A stretch of DNA of 53,272 nt from Perkinsus olseni (taxonomy: Eukaryota). Within the stretch, counting starts at the first letter, position 1; each line of letters starts with the position of its first letter. This document shows, piece after piece, positions 150 through 52,996 of this stretch. The stretch spans positions 1-53,272 of the forward strand of contig JABANN010000204.1 in NCBI GenBank assembly GCA_013115125.1. The letters run 5' to 3'. The notes beneath the pieces are model-generated. The model ran no database searches. It saw nothing but the letters and a program-made list of their open reading frames with translations, and was not told where the DNA came from. A program made the position numbers and the translations under genes.

Positions 150-2716
<2,567 letters not shown>

Positions 2717-3125
2717 TGTTTTTATGGTATAGATGTTGGAGAGTCTTTGCAGTCCAGCTCAACGCGGAATGCGAGGATGACTGTTTTCTGTAGTAGGTGT
2801 AGTTTTTTAGGGTGCGGAACATGTGTGTGGGGATCATCTTTCTTGGTAGTTTTCGGTTTCAATCAGCTTGGGTTCTTGTGTTCTGGCCTGGTCTTTGATG
2901 GTGATGCGAGAATGAGAATCAATTAGGGTAGTAATGCCAATTAAATTGGCCAACACGATTCGATTAAGATGATGATGGTTTTAATGAGGCGAAGGGGTTG
3001 TTACGCTGAGTATGAGTTGGTACTTTCTCACTTTCTCCTTTCCCTCGATCATCAGAGGATTTCAATCGGTTTCAGCCCTCAGCACTCGCCCTGTTGTCTC
3101 AGTTGTTTAGCACTTCCTCTTCCCC

Positions 3126-5385
3126 ATGAGCATGTCGATTTTCGGCGAAGTCACTTCTGATTCTACTTGGGTGAGTTGGACGACCTATTGCGTCCCCTCT
3201 TATTTTGTTCGCGAGTATTTGCCGTTGGAAATACTGCTGGGCAAGTGAGTATTTTATTTTGCGTCTTTTTAGTTAATAGCAATCGCGGTATTGCTGGGCC
3301 TCGCGGTTCTGATCGAGCAAGTCTTGTACGACACTTTCTACAAGAAAATTGCTAACTATAGGACAGGCGAAATGAGGAGGAAAATTGTCCCTGCTAATTT
3401 CAACGCCCATCCTCACGCCCTTCAAGGTAGTGGTTGGTGTTGGAAGCCGGGATCGAACCGGGGACCTTTTGATTGCAGGTTTACTGCCTGAGCTAAGCCC
3501 TGCTTCACCTTTGAAAGGGACTGCTGGGCTTTATTCTTTGAAGTCCACTGGCGACAAGATATTCTGGGAGTAAGTTTATTCGACCGAGCTTCTCGCTGCA
3601 GATAAACACGCATTCAAAGTCCTCGAGAGAGCACAGAAAACTCTTGAAATTGTCGTAAAATTTTGCATTTTTCAAAGTAATTCTTACAACAGAATCTCGG
3701 CAATCTTTCGTGTGATTTCAGTATTATGTACTCTTTTTCAGGACCTTCGTTCCAACCGGTGTTGCCCACCCTAAGGGAGTGATCGTCTTATGCCATGGTT
3801 ATGCTGACCACTCGGGCTTCCACATATTCAATGACGCTCGCATGTTCTGCGAGAAGGAGAAATACGCGTGCGTGCTGTTCGATCAGGTTATACCAAAATT
3901 TCGTGAAATCGTGACTTACACTACTCGCTTCAGGTCGGCTCAGGGCGCTCGGACGGTCTTCAGGCATATGTCGATGACTGGTTCAAATACTGCCAACTCG
4001 CCAAGGAGTTCATCGATGAATTTGTAGGCTCCTGGGATTGAACCCGCGACCTCGGTTGATTGCCCGTCGATGCAGGTTCTGGGAAGTTTTGTACCATCTC
4101 TAGCGGAGCGAAGCCAGCATTTGCCATTTTATGGTTACGGCCATTCGATGGGGGGTGGCCTCGTAGCATCGCTGTCTATTCTGCATCCCACTTTATTCGA
4201 TGGAATTATTCTCCAAAGCCCGATGTTGAAGGTGAGAAATCGATCGTCCGGGCGTGCGCTTTTCACATGACGGTGTGTTAGATACCTCAAAGTATGCATC
4301 CTTCTTGGATTGTTGAGGAGTTGCTGAGAGGTCTTGCTAGGGTTGCTCCCAAGGCCCCCATAGTAGGGATAATTTACGGAAAAGTTGGTATGAGTGCATG
4401 CACGCTTGTTTCAGGTTCCGACGAAGAATCTAGGCGAGGTCATGTACCATCATAAGGATGCGGTTCACTATTCTGCCAAGTACAATCTTTTGGTGTACCG
4501 CGGGAAGCCTCGTCTGCGTACGGCCCTTAGCTTACTACAGGGACAGGTAATATAATGGATGGAGCAGGGATCGAACCCGGGCCTCTTGCTACGCCCTAGT
4601 GGCTAAAAAATTTTCACACTTTTTGTCATTGGCGTTACTCTTGCCGAAAGTGGAGCTTCCGCCTGATGGGTTTTCTGTTTCCGGATTGTCGATGGCGTAG
4701 CGGGTCTATTCTTGCGAGCTCGTTCGCGTTAGTAGCCGTCGAGCTCCACATGAGGCCAATCTCAAATGCAGAGAGAGGGCTTCTCACGTCAGCCTTTCGA
4801 TCAGGATTTCGTCAGCGCAAATTTCAAGTCTGTGACGACACCTTTTATTGTGTGCCACGGAGCAGCTGACGAGATCACCGATCCTCACGCGGATGTCGAA
4901 TTGTAGGGAAAGGGGCGGGGTCATTGGCAGGCAGGTTGACAGAGTTTGTGCTCCCATGTCTCCGTACAATGAGCGCACTCTGAAGTTGGTGAAGGTGGTG
5001 ACAGGGCAGTCTACGTGTCTGTTAATGTCGTGCACAACCTCTGGATTCCTTTACCTTCGGCCTCCTCGTTATTGGATCATTACTAGAGCGGCGATGACAT
5101 TTTTTCACTTTATTGTAGGTACAATGAATCGCCAGCTCAGAGCAGGTCGCGAGTTTGCCTGTATCCGGGTCTGAGGCACTACATTACGGGCATGCAGGAG
5201 CCGGAGGAAACTCAGAAGGTCATAATGGAAGGGGCATGGTTATTGATGGCGGGCTTTAGAGTTCTCGCGCGCCACGAAGTTATATTTGTGGTAACTTTGG
5301 GAGTGTTTGGTAGGTGTTCAACGACATGTTCGATTGGATTGACAATCGGACTGAGGAGGTGAATAAGGAGTACAAGCAAGAGTGA
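3126..5385 (+). CDS. Alpha/beta hydrolase, monoacylglycerol lipase/lysophospholipase-like (Hydrolase_4), multi-exon
   Basis: Exons carry VIVLCHGYADH, FDQ|VGSGRSDGLQAYV, the nucleophile elbow YGYGHSMGGG, GIILQSPML, PRLRTALSL, CVCHGAADEITDP, YPGLRHYITG and VFNDMFDWID...KQE*. Confidence 0.9.
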
Positions 5386-5758
5386 AATCTTGCAATCTTG
5401 TTACTTCTTGCAAACACTTAACGCAAGCATGGATTCTGTTCTGTTCCTGTGTGTACGACGTTCCTTTCTGCCACTTGGTGGCGTATCGCAATTTGTGTAT
5501 CGTGAAGCTCTCCTCTAGCGGAGCGAAGCGTTTGTCGTTGTTGAAGATTTGTCTTGCTACTGAAATACCGTGCGGAGATGCGCCGCTTGTTTGTCACGTA
5601 CTCATCCTGGGTTTCGTTGAGAGGTTCTGGTGATGTTGAGTTATATCACAGCCGTCTTAGTAGAGAGGAGGATCTTTGTTCTCCGATAGTTCAGGAGCTG
5701 GCTAGAATTTCCACATTCCGTTGAAGCGAAGAGACCATAGGCAGCAGTTTGTTTAAAT

Positions 5759-8700
5759 ATGACAACAGAAGGTGAAATTGAAGGAGAAATCGTCAGCGAC
5801 CGTCCTGCGTTACCTAAGGAGATGGACGCATTCTACTGGACAGGTTTTGGTGGTCCTGAGGTTTGCAAGGTGATAGCAATGGGCGTGGGAAGGTGACTGG
5901 AAGGTTGGGAATGTCTTCGAGTAATAGGTTTTCTTGACGCTACTAACTTCCGTTAAGGCTCTTGTCAGAAGAGTGTGGCAACTGAGAGCGTACGTGGAAA
6001 TAACTGATGGCACTGATTGACAGGAGTGTGCATGGGTTGAATATGCCCAGTTCGAGTTGTCGTTGGTTCGGATTCGGTACATGTTAGGGTGTCATTTTGC
6101 AGGTTGGGAAGCTCCCGCTGCCAGGCTCGCCGGGTCCTCATCAGCTTTTGGTAGTAGCTGTATGATTTGGGAGAAAGTTGGTATGGTTTGGTGTGCAGGT
6201 GAAAGTACATTATGCGTCCCTGAATCCGGCAGATTATCAGCAGCGTAAAGGCGAAGCGAAGCACCTTTTGAAGTACAAGTTTCCGAAAGTACTACAGTCG
6301 TTCGACTCGCCCGCTTCGTAATCTCTTTGCTTTTCGTTTTTCCCTCGGATGAAAGATACTGTGTCGAGCTGTGGCGGAGCGAATCGTTCTTGGTAGGTAT
6401 TCGGATTCGACTTCTCAGGGGACGTTGTGGAGGTGGGAAACGAAGTAAAAGATTTCAAAATCGGCGAAGAGGTGAGGTTATTAGCGCTCGCCCGCGTGAC
6501 CGATTTTCCGTCTAATTGATAGTCTGCTAGGTTTTCGGTATGGTGGCTGGTGTCAGGACAGGGACGGCCGCGGAATATGTGAGTTGAGGAAATGTAAGTA
6601 TCGTTAAGATTGCAAGATTTGTTAGGTTCTAGTTGATGATTATGTTTGTGCGTTGAAGCCAGCGGAGATTCCTCACCATTTGGCCGCAGCAGTGCCGTTG
6701 GTGGGGATAACGGCTGAGAAGGCTTTGAAGAAGTGCAAAATTAACGACATGCATCGGGTAGTAGGCGTAGGGAAGGGTTGTTGGAATTTTTACAGCGTAT
6801 CTGAGGTCGACTCTGGCGGAATCCAAAAGGACTTTGGTACATACGGCTACGAACAGTTATTATCAAGAGCTTGTTCGAAGAAGTCATTAGTTTTAGAATT
6901 GCAGTGGGAGAGGTTGATTCGCTGCAATCCTCCGACGAGTTTTGCGAGAAGTGCTTTACTGTGCATCGCTTGAGCTGGATCTGAGCGCACTGAGAGGAGT
7001 GGCTGCGCACTCTTCTTGCCGCGGCAAGTGCTGACGGGAAATGCCGTCTATCGCTTCGAATGGAGTGTAGTTCACCGGACAGCACTCCCATCGGTGCTCG
7101 AAATCTTTCTCTGGTCTCCGTGCACTCCTGCGCGAAAAATAGAACATGGCCGGTTCGACCGTCGTTTCCCTTCTACAAAATGGGCGCATACCATAACATC
7201 CCCAAATTCCCTTGGAAAGCTGTTGCTGCTCAGCCGCCGTATGCTTAGCAATATGATGAACGAAACGCCCTAGAATGATACCGAATTTGACGACCTCTCA
7301 CGAAGGGGGGTTTCAAACCTCGCACGTCCGGCAATTCCCCCATAGTGATTTCAAAGGTGGAAAAGTTGATGTGTTCACGTCGGGAGCTACTATCACAAGG
7401 ACTAGATATGAGGATAGGTTTCGTGTGCATAGCAAGCTGGCACGTACAGTAACGAGGCTTTGGCACGACAAAGGACGTGAACGGGCCAGAAAACGCGTTG
7501 CGGACCTTCCTATGGTCTCAGTGCTATAGGGCGCTGTAGAGTGCGAGCGGGGCCGGGAGTTTCCATGTGAACTTAAGACAGAGCGAGAAGAATGCTCGAG
7601 AGACGAACTCGAGGTCGTTGCTGAGAACAGCTTTCCCGAATTCATTCTTCCGGAGGGATGACGGAGAAGCCGTCTGGTGGCGCATGTTAATATTATCAGG
7701 TTCTTATCACAGGAGGCTCCGGCGGGGTCGGGTCGATAGCGGTACAGCTGTGCAAGGCGGAGTTCGGCATTGAGTGGGTGGCCACTACCAGCAGTGAGGA
7801 GAGTCGAGGCTTGGTGGAAAGCTTCGGCGCTGACGAGGTAAGTTTGGTTGCTGATGATGAGGAGTCCAGTCGACCTTTCGTTCTGAGAAGTTATTCGTGT
7901 ACAGTTTTTCATCGCTTCAACAGCTCTGGCTCGTGAGAGACCACCGGGGGTCGTTTTTCAGCCGAACGCGATTGAACAGAGGCGGTTGAGAATTGCGAGC
8001 CTTCCCAAGGTTGGAGTGGTGTTCAGGTCTTTGACTATGAATGTAACGACCGGCGCTGGGCCGAGCAGTTCGACAGCGGCACATGGCGGCATGTTTATGA
8101 TGTAGTATTCGACACTCAGGGCGACTCCAAGCAGGCTGTTCTGTTGCTGGGAGGTGAGACTTAGGAGGGGGGATGGTAGTAGTGAGAGGTGGGTCATTTC
8201 ACTCGAAGTCAATGTTGCCATAGCGGATAGACTTTCTTTTTTCTCGCCACAAACACCGTGGCGAGGAGACGGTTCCGTACTCGAAGGAAACCTCTCCCTG
8301 AGAGGGCATACTGGCATACCGACTCGGTATTACCGAGTCTCTCTCCGAGAGAAATTGGAGAGAGACTCTCTCCGATTTCCTTGCCATTTCTTTCCGATTT
8401 CTTACTGATTTCTTTCTCGTTACTTCGCGTTCCTTTCGTCCTTCTCCAACAGCTCCGCGGTGATGGCTACGTTATTTGGGAGAGGAAGAATGAGTCTAGT
8501 GTGATATAAATCGTTATTCTGTTTAGATAGCACCGACGGGGAAGGCCCAAAAGATGCAGGTGGGATGGTATCAATTGTGGATGGTCCAAGTGCCGAGGCT
8601 GCACTTGAATGGCTTAAAGAGTCTGGCACGGAGGTGAGCATTGAGGAAATGCAAGATTGCAAGATTTCTGGAATTCTTGTGGTGCTTTTTTTCAGCCAAA

Positions 8701-9544
8701 GCATTCATACATCACCTCATTTTTGGAGAACTTCTCGTGGCTGTGGGATTCGGTGAATGGCGTGCGATCGATGCGGAAGAAGGCGAAGGGCAAGTGAGTA
8801 GCGCTCGCCCTTTCGATCGATTTGTACTTGAGATGTTCTTATTTTGCAAGGTATTGGACTGTGATCGGAACTGGCGACGGTGACGCGTGTCGGCGGCTGG
8901 CGACCATGCTTGAGTCGAAAAGTATCGTTCCTCACATCGATGGAGTGTAGGTAGCTGTCTTTCGTACACTTGTAGTATTTGCAAAATCCTCGATGAAGCT
9001 CTCGCTCGCCCTGCATATGATTCGAGCGCTTTGTGATTTTCCGGGGATGTCAGGTACCCGTTGGCCCAAGCAAAGGACGCTTTAGCGAGGGTTGAGAGCG
9101 GTCGGGCGAAGGGAAAGGTTTTGATAGAAGTAAGGTTCGATGACTTTTCATTTGGGCATGAAATCGCTCACTCTGATGGAGCGGGCTAGGGGCTCCTATC
9201 CTCTGCTCCAGGGTTTGATGTTGTCTACGGGTTGTTCGTGTTGTTAGGTCATTCCCGATGCGAAGGCGACTTTTGTTGAGACAGATGCCTCGATGGAAGC
9301 GGTTGAAGGGTCGAGTGAGCCTCAGGCTAGCTCCCCGGCTGAGGAGAGGGTAGAGGTTGCCAAGGAGGCTGCGATGGAGGCCGAAGAAGCGGTGAAGAAG
9401 TCGGAGGTTGAAGCGAAGACTTCGAAAGAAGCTGCTCAGACGGGATTGAAAGATGCCGCTGAGGGAGTTTCCAACGCTGAGGCTGCCGCTGAGGAAGCGG
9501 AGAGCGCGGGAGCGGCAGTTGAACGGCGGGAAGAGCGGCTTTAG
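5759..9544 (+). CDS. Zn-independent MDR/NADPH:quinone oxidoreductase-like protein with acidic Ala/Glu tail; central segment apparently missing
   Basis: VKVHYASLNPADYQQRKG, GFDFSGDVVEVGNEVKDFKIGEEVFGM, GTAAEYV, AAAVPLVGITA, then after a 1.7-kb intron GGMVSIV...IVPHIDGVYPLAQAKDALARVESGRAKGKVLIEV. These are typical MDR N- and C-terminal motifs. Confidence 0.85.
7245..8317 (-). pseudogene. Decayed antisense ORF of unknown function inside the MDR-gene intron
   Basis: ORFs 8317-7958 and 7912-7313 are in the same frame, separated by one TGA plus 15 open codons. Protein-like sequence continues in another frame (KAVLSNDLEFVSRAFFSLCLKFTWKLP). No family was recognised. Confidence 0.35.
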
Positions 9545-18600: not shown

Positions 18601-21254
18601 GCCGAATTAACCACAAAGATTGAGTTCGAATTCGATAGCACCTCATTGGTCAGTAGAGAGTCTAGGCCAATAAACTTCTTTAACAAGAGCGGTTTGGTCG
18701 CGTGGTTATCCTGCATGCCTGTAGGCCGAAAGACCCTAGGATCAATTCCAGGTTCCGACTAGTGCGGATTTTGCCGACCACAGCAGTGAAGGTCACCAAT
18801 CGATTGAGATCTCCTTTACCTCCCGATTCGCGTTCAATTAACTCGATGTTGCTTCGACCGCTGCCCCTCCGGTCATGCGCCGTCCGTGTGCGAGTTTTGA
18901 GTCCAACGCCATGAATGGGCTCAATCAGACTAGCACTGATGTATCTTGTTTCAAGAGGGACCAGGTTGGGCACGTCTATTGAGCACAGAAAGCAGCGCTG
19001 AGGCGGAGGGTCGGGCAGACCTGAGATACTTTCTTTCCTCCCGGCAGGATCCGCTTCCACAACTGTTCATGCGGCTGTGTTTCAGATTGGCTCGATAGAT
19101 AAGCGGGAGTGTATGTACGCCGAAACGCAACAGTACGAGAGTGATAAATTAAAAAACATCGTTTTCCATGGGAACAGCCAAAACAACGCACACAAACAAG
19201 AGCGCGAAAGATTCGAAATCATGAATAACCATCTTCAGTCCAAGAAAATGGCGTCCATACCGTTCGGGATGATTCTTCCTCATTGAAAGGCATCGCTCAT
19301 CCGAACCGCGAGATCAGGCTCTCCACCAAGTTCCGTTCGTAACCCATTCGAAAATGTTGAGGGCCTGCAAGTCTGGATGGGACTTCCACCTACCCCAGTG
19401 CAGCCCTTCGAGGTATTCGTTGTAGAGCCGCACTTGCTCCCAAGGGAAAGCAGTGGGAGGAGCCTTCTCACATGTCGGCAATAATTCTTCGAACCTGTCC
19501 GCGTGGAACTTGGGCTGGATAATCCTGAAAGAGACAGAGTGTTGAACAGGAATTAAGAGAAAAAGTTAAAATTTCGAGTTCGCCAACACTCCGTTGCACT
19601 GTGCATTTACTAGTCGCCAAACGCGGGGGGAAGGGGCGTTCAATCCTGAATTTCAGTATCGATTCTGGCATTCGTTTTCACGCCTAACTAGGTTCCAGAA
19701 GTAGTTGATTGAACAGTGGACTAAGGGTTTGTAAGGGTTGCCATTACGACCAGTACAAATAATCCGCGACTAATGACGAAGGGAAAAAGGTGCGAGCGCT
19801 GAATGAGCTCCCCACGAAGGCAATAGCGCTGCCATTCGAGCGGCGGCCTACAATCTATATTTGGGATCATTGGCAGTTTCCATCGCGAAACCAGGCCAGG
19901 CGTCAAACAAATCGTTAAGATAACCTTGGGCGATATCCGTTCCGGAGCTCCGCAATAGAGCTGCTTTGAGGGATGGCGGACTCCTAGTGTGAGAGCTATT
20001 CGCTGCGATCGCTTTTATTAGCGGCTTGCTGAATTTCTTCAACTCATCTTCACCGACTATTATTGAGTAATTGGTTTCCCTGAGAATAATACTGGATATT
20101 CAACAAACTGCCTCTCCTGAGTTTCAACAGCCCACCCAGGATCGTCTTTTACAGGGTAAATTCGATCCTGAGGGCGCTGGTGCAATTCAGGAGAGGCATC
20201 GCCAGGTAGAAAGCGAAACCGACGGCAATGAGATCAGTCACCACCCGTATGAGTATTGTATATGGGCCACGTCAGTCAGGCGGGGATGCTCGTCTTTTGG
20301 GCCTTAAACATATCCGAACACAGTCTGCAAGAGGAGACAAGGTCGACCCTGGTCGAAAACGAAGAGAAAGATACCTTACCCGTGAGTTTTCGCCATCAAT
20401 TGGGAATTCGCCGCGCTCGAGATCATCGGCATTCACAGGAGCAGAACGAAGAGCAGCCGAGTGCGATGATGATATCAAGACAGCGGCTAGGAGCAGTAGT
20501 CTCGACCGAAGGAAAGCGTGGAACGAAGTGGCCATTTCAAGGCAAGGGAACCTCTTGAGAGGACCGTCTTCTTTAAAGTCTACGATCTGGTCGATGAGTG
20601 GTATAGGGCCGGCAATTGGCCCCTTTTCCTGCTCCTTGGTAAACGCAATAGCCAACCATTGGCCCATCACGGTATGCTCCGCGATGAGTCACTTCCAGCT
20701 GCCAAAACAGCGTCACAACGCGACCGCTTCATTCCGAACCAGTAGGTTGAAGCGGGTGAAACTATTCTCGATGCTCGGACGGAGTCGAAGATGAGACCGG
20801 CTGTTCAGTGAAAGAAGAAGAAACCAGGCCTGGGGTCGATCCCGAAGATCGATTTTGGAGACGTGTTCAGGAAACTCGGTCCTGAGATTTACCAGGGTTG
20901 AACGTGAACTTTGAAAAATGTTCTTGAAATCTAATCCTGTGACTAGTCCTAGGGACGTCTGTAGTGTAATCTTGTAGCCACCGGAGATCTCAAAGGGTTC
21001 ATTATCATCGCCATGCAGTGCCAGCCATCTTAATCACTCTGTTTATGGAAAAATCCTCGAGAAAGACAGGCTGCCGGGATCGAACCCGGGCGACCGCGAG
21101 TGACGTCGGAATATTCTTCCGCGCGCCAGGAAATTCCCCCTTCTTCTTTTCACGCGCCACTTTTCGCAGCCTGACTCGCGAGAGGGTGGTGTCGAAAAGT
21201 CACATCGGTGTGGTAAGGCCTCCTCCTCTGCTGCATCAGAACGACTTCGTTCCG

Positions 21255-24136
21255 ATGGCGGCCACTGAAGCGACAGTTCGATCCTTGCGGAGAGCACTGA
21301 CCGAGGCAGGCGCATTGTGGTCTATCACGGACGATGAAGATACCCTCAGAGAGAGGCTACAAGGTGTTCTTGCTCTCTTAGCCGGCCCCTTTGAATGGTG
21401 TCTTAGGTTGACCATGGACGAGTATCCTTCAGGTCGCTCTGGGAGCGAGCTCGGGCGAGAGTGTTCGAGTGATGAGCGTCGGCTCCTGTGCAGTCTTAGG
21501 GAGCTCTCGGTCGTCGTAGTGGACTCTGGGGCCAACACGGACCGAGTTGAGACTGAAGACAAGAGAACGCAGGTGATCATCATCATGAGGAACGAAATTT
21601 GTGGTACACATCTTTTTCTAGTGGATTTCGATTTTTTAGGAGCTCTTCTTCACAATAAAGAGTTCACATGCTCGCCAGGACTTAACGAGGGGGGGGGGCG
21701 TTTATTTTATGATACTTCTTTGCTTGGTACTCGGCGAGGATGTCTATAGATCTTTCATTAGACTCTCAGCGGCATACGGCGAAGTCTTGTCAAGAAGGCT
21801 GTGTTCATTCACGAATGCAAAAAAAGTTAACCCAGTAGTATTTCTTCTTGGGTCAACCTAAAGCCGGGTTTCTATCTTTAAGTTTACCAAAGCCTAGAAA
21901 ATTTTGAATGTACTTTTTGGTATAACAGATGCTGATAAATAAGGTATTCCACTTAGCCGTTTTTCCTGGGATGGTTACGGCGTAACCCTGCATTTGTGCG
22001 ACGTGGATGTCGCTTTCCAGCGGAAGACGTAAAGCCAATACGTCGGTATAAATTTTTCATTGCGCAGCATCTCAGTTTGGCTCTAATATCGGTTCGCATA
22101 GGGTGCTATCTAGATTGATTGATCATACCAACTTTTCCTGAACGGACCTTTGATTAGTATCTGGGGGATACCTGAGTGCTCTTATCATGTTGTTAGGGCA
22201 GGCCTTGATAACGGGTCGAGAAGAGAGGGATGCGGCAGTCCAGACCGATTCTAACGGAGAAGTGGATCGGCTGAAGACGGAACTAGCTTTCGAGAGGCGA
22301 CGTGTGATCAATCTGGAGAGGCAGTATACTAGGTAATATAGGATGGATATTATCTTGTTTGGCGTAGTGGTTAAGATGTCGGGCTTCCTACCTATAGGTC
22401 GTGGGTACGACACTCGGCCCTTGTTTGTATAGCCGGGTAAACTGATGTGTTAGCCTGTCATTTTCTTGAGCATTTGGGAGATGTAATTCTTCCTTGAATT
22501 GAATATAGAGGGGACGTAGAACTGGATAGTGGGGTCGTTACCAACGAGTATTGGCGTGGATTTTTCCATCTTTGTGCGTCCCTTTTTATGTATCTCTCAA
22601 TTTTCTTATCTCTTGATGAGCGCGGGAGGGGACAGGGTCTCTCGCGGAGTCCGAGCGTGGTACAGTAGGAGGACATCTAAAGGGGAAATTCCTTGAGTGG
22701 TTATTCGGCAACTGTGACTTGTAAACATTGGGAACTTCGACTAGAACATTATAATACATTATCGCACTGAGTTGGTGGTATCTCAGGTCGGAGGTCGATC
22801 GATTGGATTTGATAGCTCGTGCCAACACTCTCGAGATCGAATTGCGGCGTCTTGAACAGGAGCTTGCGCACGATAGAGATCTTAATGCTCACAAGCACGC
22901 GAGAGAAGATACCTCATTGAAAGGTAAAGGTAGTGTGCTCAGTTTCCTGCGTCATCGGCCCCTCAGATCTCGGCCGGAGTATCCTTCCGTCTGTGGCGTC
23001 CCCGTGTGGCGTACAGGCTGTCCTGGGTGGTGGAGGGGGACCGACGTTATTACTGTCTATTATGGTAGTGCATTTTGTCGGTGTGAGTGCATCGACTTAG
23101 CTATCGGGAATTCACGTCTCGAGGAGGGTTCTTTGGCGTGAGAGTCTCATCGTTAGTTCATGAAGAATTCTTATGTACTTTACGATAATGATTTGATCTG
23201 TTTGGCACGCATGCATCATTCTAATAGCTCGAAAACGTAATGTTATGAAAGTCAGTAAATCACTATCGGAGAATATTCCATAAAAATAGTATAATAAAAT
23301 TGAGTATTCTTGCGGTAATGATGATGTGTAATAACATATTATCGATAATTTTCGGCTAGGGCTTACTAGTTGCCCTGGCTGTTTTTTCTCAATGCAACAA
23401 CTCTTACTGGTCTAAGAAAATCAGTTTGAATGTAACAGTTGAAATATCTACTGGTTTTCATACCAACTTTTCCCCAATTTCTCTCTGGCGGCGCAAATGC
23501 TTGAAGAATTATCGGAGTATCTTAGGTTGAAGCTGTGTGTACAGGACATGTCAAGCACCAAGATTACTGTTGGGTGGAGATAAGGTTGGCCTCGGACGAT
23601 TCAGGAAGACTGATCGCTGCTGGACGAACGCATGGAGAGAGGTTTTCGGTTGAAGACGGGAGGGAGTTGTCTTTTGGCGGAGCGAAGCTGGAAATGACGT
23701 GCCGGTGTAGGGTTTTACCGTAAAATTGTGAATTTTTTTGAGGTGCGAGTTTGCTGTGAAATATCTTGGTAACGTAGTTGAGAATCTTCGGGCTGGTACG
23801 AGTGTGTATAATTCCGTTACGGATCCTACCGTTTTGTATAACCAAGAAAAAAGATTCTCTTGAGGTTTGAGTATGCTGGGGGAGATAGTTTCTGCGCGAA
23901 GACTGTGAGCTGTTGAACTAAAATTTTTGAAGGGAGATTTTTTTCGTGCGCCGGAAAAATGTAGAATGGCGACGTTTGTCCTCTTTATTCTCATGTTAGT
24001 TTCATCCAGTGCGGCGGAGAGGGCCCTGAAGATGCTGATATGTGTGTGGGGGAAATGTGATGAGGGCAAGGCTTACTTGGCTGAGAAATCGTCACAGTGG
24101 GAGCCTGTGTCGACTCATGAGGAACCTAGAATGTAA
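21255..24136 (+). CDS. Hypothetical coiled-coil protein, multi-exon
   Basis: Consecutive exons MAATEATVRSLRRAL...EDKRTQ | ALITGREERDAAVQTD...LAFERRRVINLERQYT | SEVDRLDLIARANTLEIELRRLEQELAHDR... | VEAVCTGHVKHQDYCWVEIRL... | AAERALKMLICVWGK...EPRM*, each bounded by AG/GT. The 3' end is uncertain. Confidence 0.6.
22360..22420 (+). other. Degenerate tRNA-like sequence (A-box plus decayed B-box), intronic
   Basis: TGGCGTAGTGGTTAAG ... AGGTCGTGGGTACGACACTC at tRNA spacing. No acceptor stem was found. Confidence 0.45.
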
Positions 24137-27300: not shown

Positions 27301-30300
27301 AGCAGGTCGACCCGTCTTCAACCACAGATCCGCTGGTAGTCATGTGAGGGGTTTGGACTGGGTGTAGGGGAGCTGGTTGTTTTCAGGCGGTGAAGACGAA
27401 GCGACTGAGTCTGGATATGGTGTTGTGTGTTATTAACGGATCGGGGAGCGTGTTGAAGAGGAAACCCGCCTTTATAGAGGAGATTAAGTAGTGTACGGAA
27501 GGGCGTGGGTTCGATCCCCAGAGACGCGTATTTCTGAGTTGTATCCGAGTCAGTATCGGGGTGCTGCCTCGAGTCCCAGTCGCTCATGCCATGCAGCATG
27601 AAACCATAGCGGCCTCCTCATTATTGCAAGGGTGATGAGACCGAGTCCGATATTTTGACCTTATGTGCATCTGGCAAGAATCAACCTTGGATACGTTCCG
27701 TTCTCTTTCAGGTCTCGTCTAATGTTCTCTATACTCCGCAACTGCGTGTCACCGGTTCCGAAGATCTTCACCCTAGCCCTGCAAGTGTTTGTAGCGGTCG
27801 CGACGAACCCAGATCTGAAGATGCACATAAGTACGCAAATAGGGGTCTTTGTGGAGGAGGTCTTCAAGAGGATATTGGACTCGGGCAACTCGAGTTTTCA
27901 ACATAAGCATCGAGTCCTGCAGGTAATAGGAGGCGGGACTAGGATTTGGGCGATGGATGGTACTGTACTCTGTTGTATTATCGCTCTATCCGTTTAAACT
28001 GACCTCCTAAATGATGGTGGAATAGCTGCGACTGAAACAATCATTTGAGTTCAACCAGCGATACGAAAACCCACGTCATAAATTGTAATATGCTTAATAA
28101 TGTTATTCCGTCGCGAAAAGTTTACGGTTTTTCTCTCCGTAGTCGCAAGGTTGTTCTGTTGTAGGTTTTCTACAAGCTGTGTACAGACGCCACCACTTCT
28201 CTTGATTTATTCAAAGAATACGATTGCAGTGTAACAGAGGGGAATGTCTTCGAGGGGTCGATCACGACGCTGGCGAAGATAGCTCAGGGCTGCATACAGA
28301 AGTCAGGGGCTGGGGATCTACAGCCGGAACAGGAGGCGAAACTGAGGATGCTGGCTTTGGAAAGTCTTGTGACTTTGACCGGGAGTATGGTCGAGTTATC
28401 GAACCGCCAGGCTGCTGAGCAGTCCTCGGGGGGTGGAGAGAAATCGACGGAAGAGAGTTCGGATGGGAAGGGAAACGATCCAACCACAGCGAGTTGTTCT
28501 GCTGGGGAGAGCGACAGTGGGGGAGGAAGTCCGAGGAATTCTACTATTACTGCCAATGGTTCGGCAAGATCGAGCGCGATTGTTGCGAAGGCGCGGAAGT
28601 CGGAGTTAGAAGCGGGAGTGAGGAAATTTAATATGAAACCGAAAAGGGGAGTTGAGTATTTTGTGGCGCGCGGTTTTTGCGAGAACGATCCGGCAGATGT
28701 GGCGAGGCTGTTGAAGAGAACGAGGGGGTTGGATAAGACGGCGTTTGGCGACTACTTGGGTGAAGACGAGCCCTTCAATTTACAGGTTATGTATGCGCTG
28801 GTGGACTCCCATGATTTTCACGGGATGGATCTTGTCTCGGCTTTGCGGGAGTTTTTGGAGGACTTCAGGCTGCCGGGGGAGTCTCAGAAGATCGACAGGA
28901 TGATGGAAAAGTTTGCGGAACATTACTGCAAGCAAAATCCTGATATTTATGCGAACGCGGATTGCGCGTATATTTTGTCGTTTTCGTTGATTATGTTGAA
29001 CACGGACCTGCACTCGTCACAGGTGAAGAATAAAATGAGTTTGGATGATTTCAAGAGAAATAATAGGGGAATTAATGACGGTGCGGATGTACCGAGCGAG
29101 CATCTGGAGTTTCTGTATAACGAGATTAAAAACAAACCGTTTTCTTTGGACGAGGATGAGGATTTGAAGTTGAAACTGGCGAGTCAGCAGCGGTCAGCGA
29201 TGCAGCCGTCCAGGAGGTTTGAGCTGTTCATTAAGGAGACGGAGTCGATCGTGGAAAAGTCGAGGGAAATGCTGAGCAGGAAGCCGGAGGATATGGGAGG
29301 GGTTCAAGACCCGCAAGAGTAATACAGGAATTGGAATCATCTGATCATTGGAAGGGAAAAGGGCGTTTTTTCGTCTGTAGTTTTATGGTCGCTGTCATGG
29401 CTTGCAGGAATGTGAGGGAGAAAATTGAGAGAATTTCACGATTGATTCGGGAATGAATTCTAGCAGCGCTTCGTTATTTTAACAAATTTCACCAGCTTGA
29501 GCTTTCTACGAATATCGGGGTTATTTTTCGTCTCTTTCCTTCTCACCGGGAAATTTATGATGGAATTTTGCTGAGCTTGGCAGTTGATTAAGTTTGTCGC
29601 AACCAGGAAATAGCTTCTTCAAGTAGTGTTGTTAGGTATCTTGGTCCGATGTTTGAAGTGATGTGGGGCAGCATATTAGGGACATTATCACAACTGATGA
29701 ACTCGGAGGAGGAGTCTGTCGAGGTCGTCGAGTGGTAAGTCGGACGTCATTGTGCTGGTGGGAGCGGAGGGGTAGGAGCTCACATTGATTTCACGGAAGA
29801 GTTGTGCTGGGATGCGGCTGAGAATTGGTTGCCTACCGTAAAGTCAGCGTTTCATCGGAAATGCCCGCGTCGTTCGAAGGAGGCTTCTTGGGTCCTATCA
29901 ACTGTTTATAGATCGGTCGTGATCGGTGTTGTGGGCGGTGCTGATTTTGTCTCTTATTAACGGATGAGCGGTCGGTCGTGGTCGACGGAGCAGTGATGAC
30001 TTCTTCTTCGGTATAAATTTCCCAAGCTAGTATGTTTCGGCGGGTTGGGGGATATCTAAGGTTGACCCTGGTCAGGTGTGTGGAAGGTTTGAAGCATTCT
30101 GTTAAGCTGTGCGCAAGATTCGAGATGGATACCGAGCGGGAGTGCTTCGTGGCGATGCTCGCGAAGTAGTAGCTTGTAGGTTAATATGGTTTTTCGCTAT
30201 ATCCCTTTGCCAGATACACAGGACTGATGCGAAGTCCCTTCGAGGCGCCTGCGAGTGCCTGTGAGAACATCATGTGCATCAAAGCGTTGCTTAGCTTAGC

Positions 30301-33300
30301 CAACAGCGAGACAGACGGAGGGGATGTTGTCCTCGGTAGTAGACTTGTGGTTGCAGACTTGCGGTTTTCACGCGCATATATCAACAAGGGAAGAATATGG
30401 GAGTGTGAGCTGATATGATGAGCGCTTTTTTCGACTCGTCTGCAGTGGCCAGAAATTTCGTTGTATTCGGCCGGCGCTAGGCTCGAACGGTATCACCTGG
30501 AGCCGATTTGTCGTTCATAGTGGGCGTGTTCAGGTCACTCATGGAAGCATGTACTGCTGATGGCTTCCCAGATAGACAGACTAGCGCTCCTGGCGAGTCG
30601 AGCGAAGAGCGATTATGTGTATTTTACAAACCCTTCGGGAGCGTCGGAACCGCAGAGGGTAGTAATGCTGGGTGGTTTCGATTTCTCTGGCCGATCGGTC
30701 GTGCGTTGTCTAAATGACTCATTCTCTGTTTCGAGAATGACTGGTCACTCTCCACTGAACGACGACGCTGCTTCTTCTGTTCAGCACGCTAGACCGAGCA
30801 TGATGGGGGTTATGTTCGCCACGCATTCATCATCGTCTTCTACGGCCCCTCACCTTGCTACGCAGTGGGTCGGCACTGGGGTGAGCGTGATGATGAAGCA
30901 GCCGGAGGAACCCTCAGAAGCGGAGATTAATGTAATACCGATGGGAGTGGCATTCTTCTGGCCGTGTTGATTCGCATCTAAAGGTGGAGTAGATAGCCTT
31001 TCCTCAATTGTGATGCATCGTGAGGTGAGGCCAAACAATTGGAGCGTGCGTGTTTCTCGTGAGTGTCTGAAGTGATGAAAATTTGATGGTGTCAGGCTAG
31101 CAAGGAAGTTGTGGAGGGTCATCCTGAGATAGTACCGGCAACTGATGCTATCTTTCAAAGGTGAGCCGGGAGGAAGAATGTATGGTGGATTTCTCGCGGT
31201 GGTTTGCCAAATGAAGTGAGTGAAAACATGACATTTTAAGCCAGGATGGCTGCGGAAGTTTATCACTAGTAAACCATGCGAGAAGCGCGGGATCGGGGAG
31301 CCTTAGGATTCGCTATGTGTGATGAAGCACACGCCCCATGATGATTCTCTCTGCACTGTTGAGCGGTTTCGGTTTTTCTCAAGATATTCGTCGTCCCTTC
31401 AGGTCGACTAAGCTGTCGAATGGAGAGATTATAGTGTTTGTGGAGGAGCTATGCAACCTCTCATCAGCCGAGCTGGCGGTGGTGGATAACCCTAGAGTCT
31501 TCTGTCTCCAGAAGCTGGTGGAGGTGGCCGATGTTAATATGTCTAACCGAATCAGGTTGGTGTGGTCTCGGATCTGGCGGGTCTTGTCGGCTCACTTCGC
31601 GCAAGTAGCGCAAAGCAAGAACCAGCAGCTGTCTATGTACGCAATCGATTCGCTGAGGCAACTGGCCCTTAAGTTCCTGCAGAAGGATGAGTTGTCAAAC
31701 TATCACTTCCAAGTGGAATTCTTGCGCCCTTTCGAGGCAGTGATGGGATCGTCGGAAAGCTCGCGAGAAGTGAAGGAGCTGATTTTGTCGATAATGGAAT
31801 CTTTCGTGGCATCGGACGTGACGCGGTCGAACATGAAGTCTGGTTGGAAGTCGGTCTTCCATGTGCTGTTACTGGCCGCTACCTCGGGTGGTGATAAGAC
31901 TGTTGTCGAAATGGGTATGAGGATCGTCACGACGCTGAGGGAGAGCTACTTCGATACGGTCTGTGTGGAGAACATGCGGGAGTATGTTCGGGTTTTGGTG
32001 GGCTTCGCACAGTGTAGGGAGGGAGGGTTGGAGATCTCTATGAAGGCGATGCAATATCTGCAGGATTGCATAGGTGAGCCTACCCTAGAGCAGCGCACCT
32101 CCTTAGTGAACTGTTGCTGTCCTCAGATTATCTGGCGGACCCTGACAACCAACTGCCACCGGTGCAGATGTCATACCAGCAAGGTCTCTTGTCTGGAGGT
32201 GGTGCTTGCTCAAATTGTTGCTGGGATGATTTGGTGGAGTTTAGGTACGCCACAGTCAAGCTCTGTTGCCTTGCCTACTACTGCGTCACCTGGGAGGAGA
32301 GAGACGGCGCTCTCGGCTGGCCCACAACAGCAGCCGGCGTTACATTGGTTTCCGGTAGTAATTGGAAGCATTAAATTGCTATGGCCCATAGCCTATGGGC
32401 GAGAGAGATATGTTTGCCGGAGTCCGCCTTGGTGGGGATTCTATACGCCATGTGGATCTGATAGAAAAACGGGAAAATAGGTTTATAGGCTAGGATATAG
32501 TCCTACCCTATCAACCTATTTTCCCATTGGTCCCTGAGCACAGGGACAAATTGTGCAAACGGATTGTAGTTTACGAGATGGTGTTGAATAACACCTTGTT
32601 ATGGTGGTGCATAGCTTAGAAAATGTACATCTTCGCTATGCGCCACTTCAATCGACCGTGGCGGTCTCGGAAGTAGACTCGACGCTTCCGTATGCTGGTG
32701 GCGCGATGCCTTAGCATGCGCAGCAGCTTCGAGTAATCCGTCTTGATGGGAATACCGTAAAACAGCTTCCCTGTTTTGATGAGAATACCGTAAAACAGCT
32801 CCCCTGTTTTGATGGGAATACCGTTAAACAGCTCCCCTGTTTTGATGGGAATACCGTTTAAACAGCTCCCCTGTTTTGATGGGAATACCGTAAAACAGCT
32901 TCCCTGTTTTGATGAGAATACCGTAAAACAGCTCCCCTGTTTTGATGAGAATACCGTAAAACAGCTCCCCTGTCTTGATGGGAATACCGTAAAACAGCTC
33001 CCCTGTCTTGATGGGAATACCGTAAAACAGCTCCCCTGTCTTGATGGGAATAGCGTTAAACAGCTCCCCTGTTTAGACTACCGGTATCAAGCTCACTAGG
33101 TGTCCTCAACTGTTGTGAATCTGTGGACCAGTTTCATTGCCTCAGATACTACATGGTTTGGAGGTCCTCGTTTTCGACAGCCGCAGAGATGTTCGAACGT
33201 CCGCGATCGACAAGCTCTTTGAGTGTCTCAGTTCCCAGATTGATGACTTTGATAACGACACTTTGCTGATGATTTTCAATGGCGTAAGAAGACACCTACT

Positions 33301-48487: not shown

Positions 48488-48618
48488 TGTGATGGTCAGC
48501 ACAATTTCTGTCTCCCATTGATCTTGCTCCGTTCTATCGATTAGCTATGGTATCGTTCTCTGTTGTCTTACGTGTTCTATCTCCACCAACATAGGAGTGT
48601 TGTGTCTAGAGTATTACA
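48488..48618 (+). repeat. 5' LTR (131 bp)
   Basis: TGTGATGGTCAGC...GAGTATTACA, identical by eye to 52866-52996. Confidence 0.97.
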
Positions 48619-48620
48619 CG

Positions 48621-48633
48621 TGGTGCCCAGACC
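48621..48633 (+). promoter_or_regulatory. Primer binding site
   Basis: TGGTGCCCAGACC lies 2 nt after the 5' LTR. The TGG start is complementary to tRNA CCA. The primer tRNA was not identified. Confidence 0.8.
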
Positions 48634-48636
48634 ATC

Positions 48637-49638
48637 ATGGATAAAGACCAAGCTGATAAGGAAATTGAAGAGACGGAAGGTGACTCGAGGAAGTCGCCGA
48701 GGGAGACTTCCGAGCAGGAAGAGTTAGAGATAGATGGCCAGGAGCTACAAGGAGCAAAGTTCGAAGCTCGAGCACGATTACTTCGACTTCAGTTCAAGGA
48801 ACTCTTAGAGTTCATGGGCTTGTGTCTCACTGATAAGGCATGGGACACTTACAATCGCAGATTGATGCACAATCCTCAAGAGCCTCCCGAGAAGATATAT
48901 TATGGTATCGTTACTGAGTTAACGAAACAGTATAGTGAAAGCCCGAAACATGCCTTTAGTACTCTCTGTAAGATGAGGTACAAGAAAGATATATTCCGTC
49001 ATTCAACGGAGATATATAGACTGACAAAATTGGCATTCCCAAACATGGCTGCAGACGCTCGAGACCAGGTCTGCGTGCATGTGTTTTGGAAAAGTTTGCC
49101 ACAGTCTAAATTAGTGGAAGGTTATTTTAATACGTTCACTAAGATGGAGAAACAAACGCTATCAGAAGCGGTGACGCTGGTCGGTGATAGTCTCGACAGC
49201 TCGGATGATGAGCACGAGAAGACGGAGGACGAGAACGATGACAAGAAGGAAACAGTAGTAACGGCTACGGCTTACTGGCCCTATTCCAATAGAGGAAAAG
49301 GAAAGGGCAAAGGCAAAGGCAAAGGATGGTATTATACCTATAATTACGGTAAAGGGTATGGCCCAAGGAAGGGCTACGGTTACTCCAAGGGCAAGGCCAA
49401 AGGAGGAAAAGGTAAAGGCAAGTATAAGCGACCAGCATCACAAGAAGACGGGGATGACGACGAACAGAATAAAAGAATGAAGGTAATAACGCCACAGCAG
49501 TGGTTCGACGATTGTTGTATTGGTCATCCCTCGAAGTTCGTTGAAGTAGGTGACAGCCAAGAGCGAGTAGTGGGCCACTACTCGCTCTTGGCTGTCACCT
49601 TCTATGCCACTGCTAGTGGCAGTACTAGATACCGGTAG
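48637..49638 (+). CDS. gag: Gag-like protein
   Basis: 333-aa ORF directly after the PBS, with a helical capsid-like core and a basic G/K/Y-rich C-terminal region. No CCHC knuckle. Confidence 0.85.
   Translation: MDKDQADKEIEETEGDSRKSPRETSEQEELEIDGQELQGAKFEARARLLRLQFKELLEFMGLCLTDKAWDTYNRRLMHNPQEPPEKIYYGIVTELTKQYSESPKHAFSTLCKMRYKKDIFRHSTEIYRLTKLAFPNMAADARDQVCVHVFWKSLPQSKLVEGYFNTFTKMEKQTLSEAVTLVGDSLDSSDDEHEKTEDENDDKKETVVTATAYWPYSNRGKGKGKGKGKGWYYTYNYGKGYGPRKGYGYSKGKAKGGKGKGKYKRPASQEDGDDDEQNKRMKVITPQQWFDDCCIGHPSKFVEVGDSQERVVGHYSLLAVTFYATASGSTRYR
49548..49600. other. Perfect palindrome (26-bp arms, 1-nt centre) at the gag/pol junction
   Basis: AGGTGACAGCCAAGAGCGAGTAGTGG-G-CCACTACTCGCTCTTGGCTGTCACCT. 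Confidence 0.97.
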
Positions 49639-52600
49639 CTCCAAGACCTTAATGTCGAGAAGAGTGGTAGATATGATGAAGACAAGTCATAGGTATTCAG
49701 TAGAAAATGATGATATCATCATTGGTATTGCTGGTAAAGTTGATATTCTCTGTTACGTTGACGTAGTCGTGAATCACCTTGTTGAGTTGCAGTGCCCAGT
49801 AGTTAATACCGATAAGGGTATAATCCAAATGAACGGGGCAGAAGTAGACATATTATTTGGAATGGATTACTGTAATGACTTTGAGTTGGTTAATTATATG
49901 AACACAAATAAGGTTGTAAAACCTGATGAGACTCGTATAATGAGTGCTCAATACACAAGCGGAGAACACAAAGAGAACCAAGGTGTAACGAACAGAACTA
50001 AGGACGTAACAATCAGGGCTAGCGATTTTGAGGCCACTCGTAAGAATGGTAAATGGATAATAGCATGGAAATGGATAAATAAACCTGAAGAGAAACAGAT
50101 AAGGCCTGCATTCTATGATGGTCAGATTGAATCACTAACAACGCAACAGAGAGATCTATTTCGAAAGGAGATAAACTTATGGATTGAAAAGCGTTACATA
50201 CGACCATGCACTGAAGAATATGCTCAAGCAACATACACTATTATGCCCCAGATACAAATGCATAAAGAAAGCACACCTGTAAGACCAGTACTCAATCTGA
50301 AACCGTTGAATATCGAAATAAAGAGTATGCCAAACGAGCAATCGGACCCACTCGCCTGTGGTAATCCATTACGAAGATGGAGATGCAAATATGGATCAGA
50401 AACATTGTTAATAGACATTAAAAAGGCGTACTTACAGGTATCAGTTGATAAGGAACTCCAACCCTATTTGTGCTTACGAATACCATACCTTGACCATGAA
50501 TATTGGGCGATGGATTCAATGCCCTTCGGCTTGAATATAGCGCCAAAATGCTTAACTACAATAATACAGTATTGTTTGAAAGAAGATAAGATACAAGATC
50601 TCGTAGAATTCTATGTCGACGATGGAGCGGTTGAGAAGCAATATTATCCGATAGTAAAGAAATGCTTGGAGAAGAACGACTTCACATTAAAAGAACCAGA
50701 GAAATTATATCGAGCGAGAGTACTCGGAATACAAATGAGGAAAGATAAATTAGGATACTGGGCGAGAAAAGGAGGAACTCCGCAGTTGCAGAGAGTGAAT
50801 GAAAACACGGTTACACGAACTCAGATTGGATCATGGGTAGGCAAATTAGTAGCCCATTATCCTATAGCAAAATGGTTGCGAAGCGCATGTGCTATGCTCA
50901 CGAGATTAGCTTCAATAGACACGGACGAGAAGGATCAAGTAGTATCAAAAAAGATAGTTGCAATATGTGATAAATTAGAAAACGATATACTAGTCAAAGG
51001 TGATCCAGTGGAAGGACAATGGAAATTGAATGTTAAAGAACAGTGGACACTATATGTAGATGCGAGTCGGGTAGCATATGGTGCCTGTCTATATGTAGGT
51101 CAAATACGAGCGGAGGATGGATCGTGGATCCGACCACGAAACGACCATAGGCACATAAATATTGCCGAATTGGATAGTGTATTAAAAGGACTTACACTAG
51201 TGATGCAATATAGAAAAGTAAATAAAATAAAAGGAACGCAACACATCAATTTAAAAACGGACAATAAGAGTGTAGCTGCGTGGTTGAGCCGAAAAAAGTC
51301 GAGTCACTGGATACCGGTTAAAGGTATATGCAGGAGTGCAGTAGAGTCTCGTCTACAGTATTACGAGGATACACTTCAGTATAACGATCTTGAAGTTGAT
51401 GTACAGTGGATAGCATCATATGATAACTTGGCCGATGAACTGTCGAGAGTCCCACAGTATATGATAGGAAAGGATGATAACCAGGTGGCAAGTGCATCTA
51501 GTCAGCTGTTTAGCACTAGCATGGATGATAAAGAAAATCAAGTGGCGGTAACTGTAGAACAGGTCAAGTCTCCAGATCCGAGTAATCCGGACGAGCCAGT
51601 AGATCAACGCAACTGGATAAGTAGATTACAGAGAAAAGATGGTAAAGTAGTGGTGCCAGAAGAAGATGTAATAAGATTCATGACTACAGTCCATGATCAT
51701 GAAGGCGCGTCAGCCTTGTATAACCGTCTACGATCATGGACCAATATCCCACATCTTAAAAAGCGTTGTAGAGAGGCGGTGAGCAATTGCGATGCTTGCC
51801 AGCGAGGGAAAACTTTTCCCGGAGATCGTCAGGCTTGGCATAATACACAAGGATATGCAAAATGCGAAGTGCCTTTTGCTAAGGTCTATACGGATGTAGT
51901 AGGACCTTATCAGACCAAGAATAGCGAGTCGTCAATGTTCGCCATCACCATAGTTGACGGAGCATCAGGATACGCTTTAACTCGGAGTACTAAGCATAGT
52001 CCGACCAGCCAGGATGTTGTAGAGCTTTTCCAACACTTGACTGAGGTGTATGGTACGTCACCGTTGGTCGTCCACACTGATAACGGATCAATCTTCGTCT
52101 CCGAGAGGTTCTCCAAGTACTTGAGGACCATCTTGGCAGTACAAGAGCGATCAGCCGTACATGCTAGTTGGTCCAATGGTAAGGTCGAGCGCCTTCATAG
52201 GGATATCAACGCATATATAAGATGTAGAAGTAATAAACATACACTTAACTACAAGGAATTCTCGTTGCTAATTAAAAAAGCCACCACTAAACACAACGTC
52301 ACTCCTCAGAGGGATGGTAAATGCCCGCATGATAAGATTTTCCGGTTCAACGCAGTGAGTGAACCGTATATGCCGATAGAATTCAGAGAAGGATACGATG
52401 AATTATTTAGTGATGTAGTTGATCCATCACAGTTAACAGAAACACTTAAAAAAGGAACAAAAGTACTCTGTCGTAAGCATGTGTTGGGACCGAAACACCA
52501 ACCAGTCTGGGAAGATGGACGCATTCTTCGCAGAGTAGCTTCAAATATGTATGAAGTAGCCGTTCCAGATCAAAAAGGCGAGTTGTATGCTCGAGTAGAA

Positions 52601-52870: not shown

Positions 52871-52996
52871 TGGTCAGCACAATTTCTGTCTCCCATTGAT
52901 CTTGCTCCGTTCTATCGATTAGCTATGGTATCGTTCTCTGTTGTCTTACGTGTTCTATCTCCACCAACATAGGAGTGTTGTGTCTAGAGTATTACA
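52866..52996 (+). repeat. 3' LTR (131 bp)
   Basis: Identical to the 5' LTR and followed by TSD GTGGC. Confidence 0.97.

Follow-up and report, generated by a model that had tools for sequence, protein, structure and literature searches.

How new spliceosomal introns originate is an open question, and the known cases are mostly introners, which derive from transposons. Here, we investigated a locus that raises this question in a stretch of 53,272 nucleotides (nt) of Perkinsus olseni DNA (contig JABANN010000204.1 of assembly GCA_013115125.1, forward strand; the whole stretch is called the window below). A preliminary description of the window had reported antisense fragments of the transfer RNA (tRNA) T arm, including its B box, in three introns of one gene. 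We asked whether these fragments are remnants of tRNA genes, binding sites kept by selection, members of a spreading intron family, or accidents. The reported minus-strand strings are present, the three introns are real, and two more cores of the same kind stand elsewhere in the window. Judged by their sequence, the pieces are tRNA-derived, and on balance we favor the view that the cores are relics of inserted 3′-terminal fragments of tRNA genes or (pre-)tRNA copies, now intron sequence.

A hydrolase intron resembling tRNA-Cys(GCA) in antisense

The introns belong to a monoglyceride-lipase-like alpha/beta hydrolase gene that encodes 387 aa on the + strand, and its ten introns take up 1096 of the 2260 nt of the coding sequence (CDS) span. 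The spliced frame is open and contains the HG and GHSMG motifs of alpha/beta hydrolases. The translation is nearly identical to an annotated P. olseni protein and also matches proteins of P. marinus (“Monoglyceride lipase, putative”) and P. chesapeaki; over the exon at 4076-4231, the identities are 100% to the P. olseni hypothetical protein, 88% to the P. marinus protein, and 85% to the P. chesapeaki model. The features of this gene that bear on the question are as follows.

3126-5385, + strand: CDS span of the monoglyceride-lipase-like alpha/beta hydrolase gene, from RNA-contig junctions, the open spliced translation, and protein matches
3171-3272, 3427-3478, 3570-3741, 3887-3933, 4024-4075, 4232-4281, 4363-4414, 4547-4804, 4903-5118, and 5219-5313, + strand: the ten introns, from X7/X19 junctions
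3427-3478, antisense (minus strand): intron 2, 52 nt, resembling the 3′ part of tRNA-Cys(GCA) over 3435-3478, from the X7/X19 junction and alignment to five tRNA-Cys genes
3488-3495, minus strand: TAGCTCAG, an A-box-like octamer within exon 3, whose distance upstream of T-arm G53 is 37 nt versus the usual ~45 nt

Contigs of four public runs were compared with the window in region 3000-5400. These are X7, an RNA-like run from the same organism; X19, a metatranscriptome from a separate study; X1, DNA contigs that probably represent the source assembly; and X8, a P. olseni strain ~2-3% divergent from the window. The run kinds of X7 (RNA) and X8 (DNA) were presumed from the run table, and stretches without RNA-contig cover were not counted as evidence. 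Ten GT..AG stretches are spliced out in RNA contigs of X7 and X19, and the introns at 3427-3478 (52 nt), 4024-4075 (52 nt), and 4547-4804 (258 nt) are each skipped with GT..AG ends in both. RNA data from two studies thus confirm that the three introns in question are real. The intron starting at 4547, which had been put at ~53 nt, does carry a T-arm core, but it is 258 nt long. The shared 52-nt length of the other two, which had also been pointed out, is accurate and unremarkable, as the short introns of this gene measure 47, 50, 52, 52, and 52 nt, making 52 nt the usual short length.

The minus strand of intron 2 reads CTGCAATCAAAAGGTCCCCGGTTCGATCCCGG... Read in this direction, positions 3435-3478 present in order an anticodon loop, a variable loop, a T arm, and an acceptor strand followed by ACCA; the T stem is followed by seven bases, one A, and then CCA. 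We derived a 27-nt anticodon-neutral pattern from this strand. It matched five metagenome loci, and at all five, ARAGORN called a tRNA-Cys(GCA) over the match. Aligned to tRNA-Cys, intron 2 is identical at 31 of 36 bases with one gap, at a local score of 22 that none of 5000 shuffles reached; the likeness starts at the anticodon loop, covers the variable loop and T arm, and reaches the acceptor strand. The last five bases of the intron, TGCAG, which form the splice acceptor, are the complement of the CTGCA anticodon loop. Both the closeness to tRNA-Cys(GCA) and the complementarity of the acceptor to the anticodon loop had been proposed beforehand, and both hold. We also fixed the 22-nt core, shuffled the flanks, and scored the result against a library of 961 tRNAs called by ARAGORN in viral and metagenome loci, which includes no Perkinsus tRNAs. 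The best library score observed was reached by 0 of 60 upstream shuffles and 2 of 60 downstream shuffles. These alignments establish 44 of the 52 nt of intron 2 as an antisense, tRNA-Cys(GCA)-like 3′ part.

The A box that had been placed in the adjacent exon is a weaker case. The octamer itself, TAGCTCAG, is present on the minus strand, and the tRNA-Cys alignment does run on into exon 3 (GGGCTTAGCTCAG) before it meets a 7-nt gap in the D loop. Likeness of exon 3 to the 5′ half of a tRNA is weak, as its score was reached in 127 of 5000 shuffles and by 341 of 15210 genomic 42-mers. The same stretch encodes ..GLLPELSP.., residues that are conserved in the genus: P. marinus has GILPEISP at this place, and P. 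chesapeaki has GLLPDVGP. In the other P. olseni allele, the stretch carries two changes and is eroded. An A box in exon 3 is therefore unproven.

Some further observations concern the gene as such. At intron 7, X7 uses the GT..AG junction 4363-4414, and the X19 contig has its junction between 4364 and 4418, where the ends read AG..TT and a single letter is added; this is either an assembly slip or a variant junction. An X7 contig has 20 loose letters ahead of 3101, ending in CTTGGCTCA, which we take to resemble the end of the Perkinsus spliced leader; if so, a trans-splice acceptor would lie ~25 nt upstream of the ATG. The P. chesapeaki model P0123 (1260 aa) is collinear with three adjoining + strand genes of the window at 168-9535, an adenosine kinase, the hydrolase, and a zinc-type oxidoreductase. 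The order of these genes is thus conserved, and P0123 is probably a fusion of the three genes.

Five T-arm cores across the window

Besides the core in intron 2, the window holds four cores that combine a variable loop and a T arm.

4031-4052, minus strand: antisense variable-loop and T-arm core in intron 5 (4024-4075, 52 nt), 120 library tRNA matches
4564-4585, minus strand: antisense variable-loop and T-arm core in intron 8 (4547-4804), 21 nt from the donor, 50 library tRNA matches
21073-21094, minus strand: T-arm core upstream of an open reading frame (ORF), called site 21077 below; GGTTCRANYC match with library matches, ~170 nt ahead of a + strand ORF
27500-27521, + strand: sense T-arm core in an intron of a BIG1-like Sec7 gene, 20 nt from the donor; intron inferred at 27488-27711 (224 nt) from an annotated-protein junction

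The minus strand of 4024-4075 includes GAGGTCGCGGGTTCAATCCC, and that of 4567-4585 reads GAGGCCCGGGTTCGATCCC. In intron 8, the tRNA-like piece is confined to the first 39 nt. The BIG1-like intron was placed by tblastn from the exon junction between ..EEIK and SRLMF.. of an annotated P. olseni protein (P0001) and is thus a protein-based assignment. A Sec7-domain ORF at 28165-29322 (385 aa) is 100% identical to an NCBI P. olseni protein; together with the hydrolase exon match, this marks the window as nuclear DNA of P. olseni.

All five cores fit the B-box consensus GGTTCRANYC, four of them with the exact GGTTCGATCC, and each also has the variable-loop RGGYC and a T stem. Four are antisense and one is sense relative to the + strand. 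As a set they are diverse, with a mean column identity of 74%. Against the tRNA library, the only sites of the window with many matches are 3445-3461, 4034-4055, 4570-4585, 21071-21086, and 27503-27520 (33, 120, 50, 44, and 46 matches, respectively); the remaining clusters of matches are at noise level, at 185 versus 174-239 across ten shuffles. A covariance model built from the five cores scores its own sites at 36-40 bits, which partly reflects its training on those same cores. The next best site reaches 10.4 bits, and no sixth site was found in the window.

The simplest alternative is that GC-rich, near-palindromic 10-mers fell into three introns by luck. The loose pattern on which the preliminary description relied is compatible with this, as GGTTCRANYC is only weakly enriched in the window, with five matches versus 1.99 expected and five reached in 7 of 100 shuffles. 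That three of the five cores fall within one 2.26-kb gene is, by a rough estimate, only moderately unlikely, and many windows were inspected originally. The narrower motif behaves differently: four copies of exact GGTTCGATCC stand against 0.12 expected, and none of 200 first-order Markov simulations reached four, the maximum being one. Chance would also have to supply RGGYC and a T stem at every core, as well as the 36-nt match of intron 2 to tRNA-Cys. This explanation is close to refuted, and we consider it highly improbable.

At four of the five sites, the core starts close to the donor, at 23, 11, 21, and 20 nt, and the last two of these distances belong to long introns (258 and 224 nt, respectively). 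A simple calculation puts the probability that both long introns would receive a near-donor core by chance at well under 1 in 100. Beyond the T stem, there is further likeness to the ends of tRNA genes. Eight nucleotides past it we find CCA in intron 2, TTTTT at a second locus in strain X8, TTTCT at site 21077, and ATTTCT at the BIG1 core; this trailer anatomy fits tRNA gene ends. In the pre-mRNA sense, folding of seven stretches gave z-scores of -0.93 to +0.73 and no signal of RNA structure; the slice of the BIG1 intron that was folded, 27491-27541, begins 3 nt inside the intron.

For the four cores other than intron 2, we tried to name the parent tRNA and dropped the attempt, as the patterns spread over types and the flank tests were negative. 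The T-arm pattern of intron 5 had 122 matches in viral contigs (Met 32, Gly-GCC 16, Asp 7, Ile 7, other tRNA types 33, and outside called tRNAs 27), and that of intron 8 had 13 (Glu 4, Gly-TCC 2, and outside called tRNAs 7). A common origin of introns 2 and 5, suggested by a shared GCAATCAA, was likewise dropped, as the best library matches of intron 5 are Met- and Ile-type tRNAs.

The five cores are not functional tRNA genes. ARAGORN at default settings found none in the window; at 85% thresholds, it made one pseudo-call at 3439-3515, and at 75%, its 94 calls were noise. The Rfam tRNA model had no match at its gathering score in the window, and the low-threshold search that had been proposed likewise yielded no tRNA, either on 2.4 kb or on a 106-nt slice at E<=10. 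When intron 2 and exon 3 are read together by eye as a tRNA, there is no pairing between the 5′ GGGCTTA and the 3′ TTCCAAC, and two of the five anticodon-stem positions pair.

The idea that these introns derive from a tRNA or from a short interspersed nuclear element (SINE) is supported in its first half as far as the pieces themselves are concerned. A SINE is not supported, as no site shows a tRNA-like head that leads into a body and tail, and no other repeat in the window is linked to the cores. The A-box-like 8-mer occurs at intron 2 only, in a coding exon and at shortened spacing. An exon begins 0-20 nt 3′ of each T-arm piece, which leaves no room for a SINE body, and the cores differ among themselves (74% mean column identity). 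Comparison of the window with itself revealed no repeat family around the cores; it returned only a 16-nt exact match between 4567-4582 and 21076-21091 and a separate 16-mer.

We also considered the primer-binding site (PBS) of a long terminal repeat (LTR) retrotransposon, which intron 2 resembles in that TGG on its sense strand is followed by sequence complementary to the acceptor strand and T arm of a tRNA. However, the complementarity covers 44 nt, far longer than a PBS, and no LTR adjoins intron 2; the sole LTR pair in the window is 48488-48618 / 52866-52996. That pair bounds an element of its own on the + strand (48488-52996), with identical 131-bp LTRs and two ORFs, one gag-like (48610-49638) and one for pol (49571-52870, 1099 aa), and it looks recently inserted. 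Its putative PBS, TGGTGCCCAGACC, begins 2 nt past the 5′ LTR and differs from intron 2.

Strain differences, other loci, and the origin of the cores

Strain X8 has introns 2, 4, 5, 6, and 7, as well as the beginning of intron 8, all free of insertions and deletions relative to the window. Intron 2 is identical between X8 and the window at all 52 positions. Intron 5 differs at 4 of 52 positions, compared with ~2% in the rest of that contig. At three of these four positions, the X8 base is closer to tRNA sequence, and one of the three changes restores the exact GGTTCGATCC. Within the core of intron 5, three positions differ between the strains, and the one of them in the B box stays within the consensus.

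Matches at other loci of the same genome were found for the cores of five of the ten hydrolase introns: twelve partial X1 contigs from other loci match 24-37 nt inside introns 2, 5, 6, 7, and 8 at >=90% identity. Two of these introns do not resemble tRNAs; nevertheless, over 29-37 nt, their cores have matches of >=90% at other loci.

4232-4281, + strand: intron 6 (50 nt), of which the first 32-36 nt are also present at other loci of the genome; X1 contig records 2, 4, and 5 match 4231-4267
4363-4414, + strand: intron 7, 52 nt; its core 4368-4404 occurs at another locus (X1 record 6), and it holds the 16-mer GGAAAAGTTGGTATGA

A single 26.7-kb contig carries intron-2-like and intron-6-like cores 10.8 kb apart. 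Among the loose ends of X8 contigs, GTAGTAGTAAAAATGCC, the 33-nt core of intron 2, and AG would make up another 52-nt GT..AG unit, provided that both ends share one contig. Another locus, starting GTGAGAAATCG.., reads as a second intron start identical to the first 32 nt of intron 6.

These recurrences are what would be expected of self-propagating, introner-like intron families that spread as ready-made introns, some of which happen to have a tRNA-derived core. The contig that joins two kinds of core, the second 52-nt unit in X8, and the second start of intron 6 all speak for such families, as does a further GGACCTTTGATTAG at 22144-22157 on the + strand. The last is a near copy of the final 16 nt of intron 2 (GGACCTTTTGATTGCAG) and may be the 3′ end of another intron that bears a decayed copy of the same module. 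On the other hand, the five tRNA-like cores are mutually different, and the likeness to other loci mostly ends within the core, the X8 loose ends at 3468 and 4581 diverging inside the intron. No terminal inverted repeats (TIRs) or target-site duplications (TSDs) were seen by eye, and around introns 2, 5, and 8 we found nothing but an AG/GT-type splice consensus. Furthermore, copy number is apparently low, and the matching loci may partly be tRNA genes or pseudogenes. We regard intron families of this kind as a quite unlikely source of the cores.

The explanation that we favor, inserted 3′-terminal fragments of tRNA genes or (pre-)tRNA copies, would work as follows. Each fragment would keep its 3′ end and vary in how far it reaches toward the 5′ end, and on insertion it would have either hit or newly formed the 5′ part of an intron. 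For intron 2, the acceptor TGCAG would derive from the GCA anticodon and anticodon-loop positions C32-U33, all as their complement. The variable loop and anticodon stem, likewise as their complement, would supply CCTTTTGATT, which directly precedes that acceptor and is a pyrimidine tract that may include a branch site. At the other end of such an intron, the donor of intron 5, GTAGGCT, sits where the complement of the acceptor 3′ strand of a tRNA would fall. The fragment fills nearly the whole of the 52-nt introns 2 and 5, splice site included, so the insertion probably made or re-made the intron. The relics would now drift neutrally, and we take the strain differences in intron 5 as such drift.

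Several observations weigh against relics of this kind. Beyond ~22 nt, the flanks of four of the five cores are no more like library tRNAs than shuffled sequence, with the observed upstream score reached in 20 of 60 shuffles for intron 5, 46 of 60 for intron 8, 52 of 60 for site 21077, and 36 of 60 for the BIG1 core; this negative result holds but is weak, because Perkinsus tRNAs are absent from the library and the anticodon and acceptor stems vary by species. No anticodon stem-loop could be drawn for introns 5 and 8. No TSD was seen as a signature of insertion. The distance in score between the five cores and the next best site means that the 53 kb contain no decayed copies, which steady neutral decay would not predict. 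Likewise, the unchanged intron 2 of X8 lies beside flanking exon with 7 differences in 217 nt. Finally, exon 3 is conserved in protein sequence across three Perkinsus species; should its resemblance to a tRNA be genuine, the insertion must be old, and some other explanation would be needed for the intact state of the intron part.

Some of the same observations are accommodated by B-box elements under selection. The cores would then be extra-TFIIIC (ETC)-like binding sites for TFIIIC, or weak RNA polymerase III (Pol III) units, inside a gene transcribed by RNA polymerase II (Pol II); they would act on chromatin or transcription, and their tRNA likeness would be the binding site itself. This would account for the shared B-box pattern, for the lack of anything tRNA-like outside ~22 nt at four cores, for cores that are intact and unaccompanied by decayed copies, and for an intron 2 that is identical in a strain ~3% different across the flanking exons. 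Additionally, on the minus strand, the tRNA-like part of intron 2 has the A-box-like TAGCTCAG 37 nt ahead of its T-arm G53 and is followed, ~50 nt on, by a TTTT run. However, the core of intron 5 varies between strains even inside the B box, orientation is mixed, the CCA or T run 8 nt past the T stem suggests copied gene ends and not bare binding sites, and the tRNA stretch of intron 2 far exceeds what a B box needs. We therefore consider selected B-box elements unlikely to be the explanation.

A broader form of the relic explanation is that Perkinsus builds new spliceosomal introns from antisense 3′ pieces of pre-tRNAs or tRNA genes; such introns would constitute a class of introner derived from tRNAs and might double as B-box sites. 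We put this forward as a rather doubtful proposal. Such pieces would bring a ready acceptor from the complement of the near-universal C32-U33 and the anticodon, a pyrimidine tract and possible branch site from that of the variable loop and anticodon stem, and a GTAG-type donor from that of the acceptor strand or trailer. As the default intron of the genome is ~50 nt, a ~50-nt piece would be spliced immediately. A rough extrapolation from four cores among 100-150 introns, a number estimated roughly for the window from tblastn exon maps and not counted, suggests that such introns might make up ~3% of the total. Separately, a home-made intron predictor (GT..AG, 40-75 nt, joining open frames) proved too noisy, with 415 candidates on the + strand alone. 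Among the papers listed in a search that covered few subscription journals, we found no account of tRNA-derived introns in Perkinsus or elsewhere.

If true, a reversed tRNA piece whose anticodon loop serves as a splice acceptor would be a compact example of abundant small-RNA genes as a source of introns. Should the cores prove to be recent gains, they would support tRNA fragments as that source. Should they be conserved across species, they would be intragenic B-box (TFIIIC) sites in an alveolate, which would likewise be new. If they are neither conserved nor specially placed, they would be ordinary debris in intron sequence.

Other repeats and a composition bias were observed in the window. 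The exact 16-mer GGAAAAGTTGGTATGA occurs three times in the 53 kb with unrelated flanks, at 4378-4393 (+), 22123-22138 (-), and 23458-23473 (-), and the GGACCTTTGATTAG mentioned above lies beside one of these copies. At 32616-33077 there is a tandem repeat of ~33 nt and multiples, with a minus-strand ORF of repeated ..SKQGSCFTVF.. units. Over most of the window (1-32000), the + strand is persistently richer in G than in C and in T than in A, which fits a transcription-linked skew given the + strand genes identified.

Comparison with known systems

Introners are mostly DNA transposons or miniature inverted-repeat transposable elements with TIRs and TSDs, and they form near-identical families, as described in two articles (PMC11282704, PMC7789003). 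In the available text of a 2024 review of transposon-derived introns, “SINE” is absent and the uses of “tRNA” are unrelated to tRNA-derived introns (PMC11282704). The main text of a large introner survey contains “Perkinsus,” “tRNA,” and “SINE” zero times each, and its supplements may list Perkinsus genomes (PMC9860276). The Perkinsus cores resemble the introners of Micromonas, fungi, dinoflagellates, and Amoebophrya in that intron sequence would come from a dispersed inserted element and in that cores recur at other loci. Furthermore, P. olseni is an alveolate related to dinoflagellates. Unlike introners, the Perkinsus cores look like pieces of different tRNA-like sequences, with no TIR or TSD seen and a seemingly low copy number.

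A second comparison comes from within the genus. A study of P. marinus gives >500 copies of five tRNA gene types and describes Dada transposons that insert in tRNA genes, whose one-ended transposition can leave tRNA fragments elsewhere (PMC3706591). Plentiful tRNA genes and a possible route for scattering their fragments exist in the same genus. However, no Dada sequence lies near the introns studied here, and Dada cuts in the A box, whereas the present fragments start at the anticodon arm or variable loop.

The cores can also be set beside yeast ETC sites. These are defined by TFIIIC occupancy and have a B-box-like motif without a working tRNA gene. The cores share with them that motif without a working tRNA and the intact core amid flanks that are not tRNA-like. 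They differ in that intron 2 has a long tRNA-Cys stretch and one core varies between strains.

Lastly, antisense copies of SINEs, which are tRNA-related elements, can donate splice sites, as in Alu exonization. The likeness is plain, as in both cases an antisense, tRNA-related sequence within a gene supplies splice signals. In contrast to a tRNA-derived SINE, the pieces described here have no complete head with properly spaced A and B boxes, no body, and no tail, and they are fragments of 22-45 nt. Moreover, where Alu exonization yields a new exon, the Perkinsus fragment forms intron sequence.

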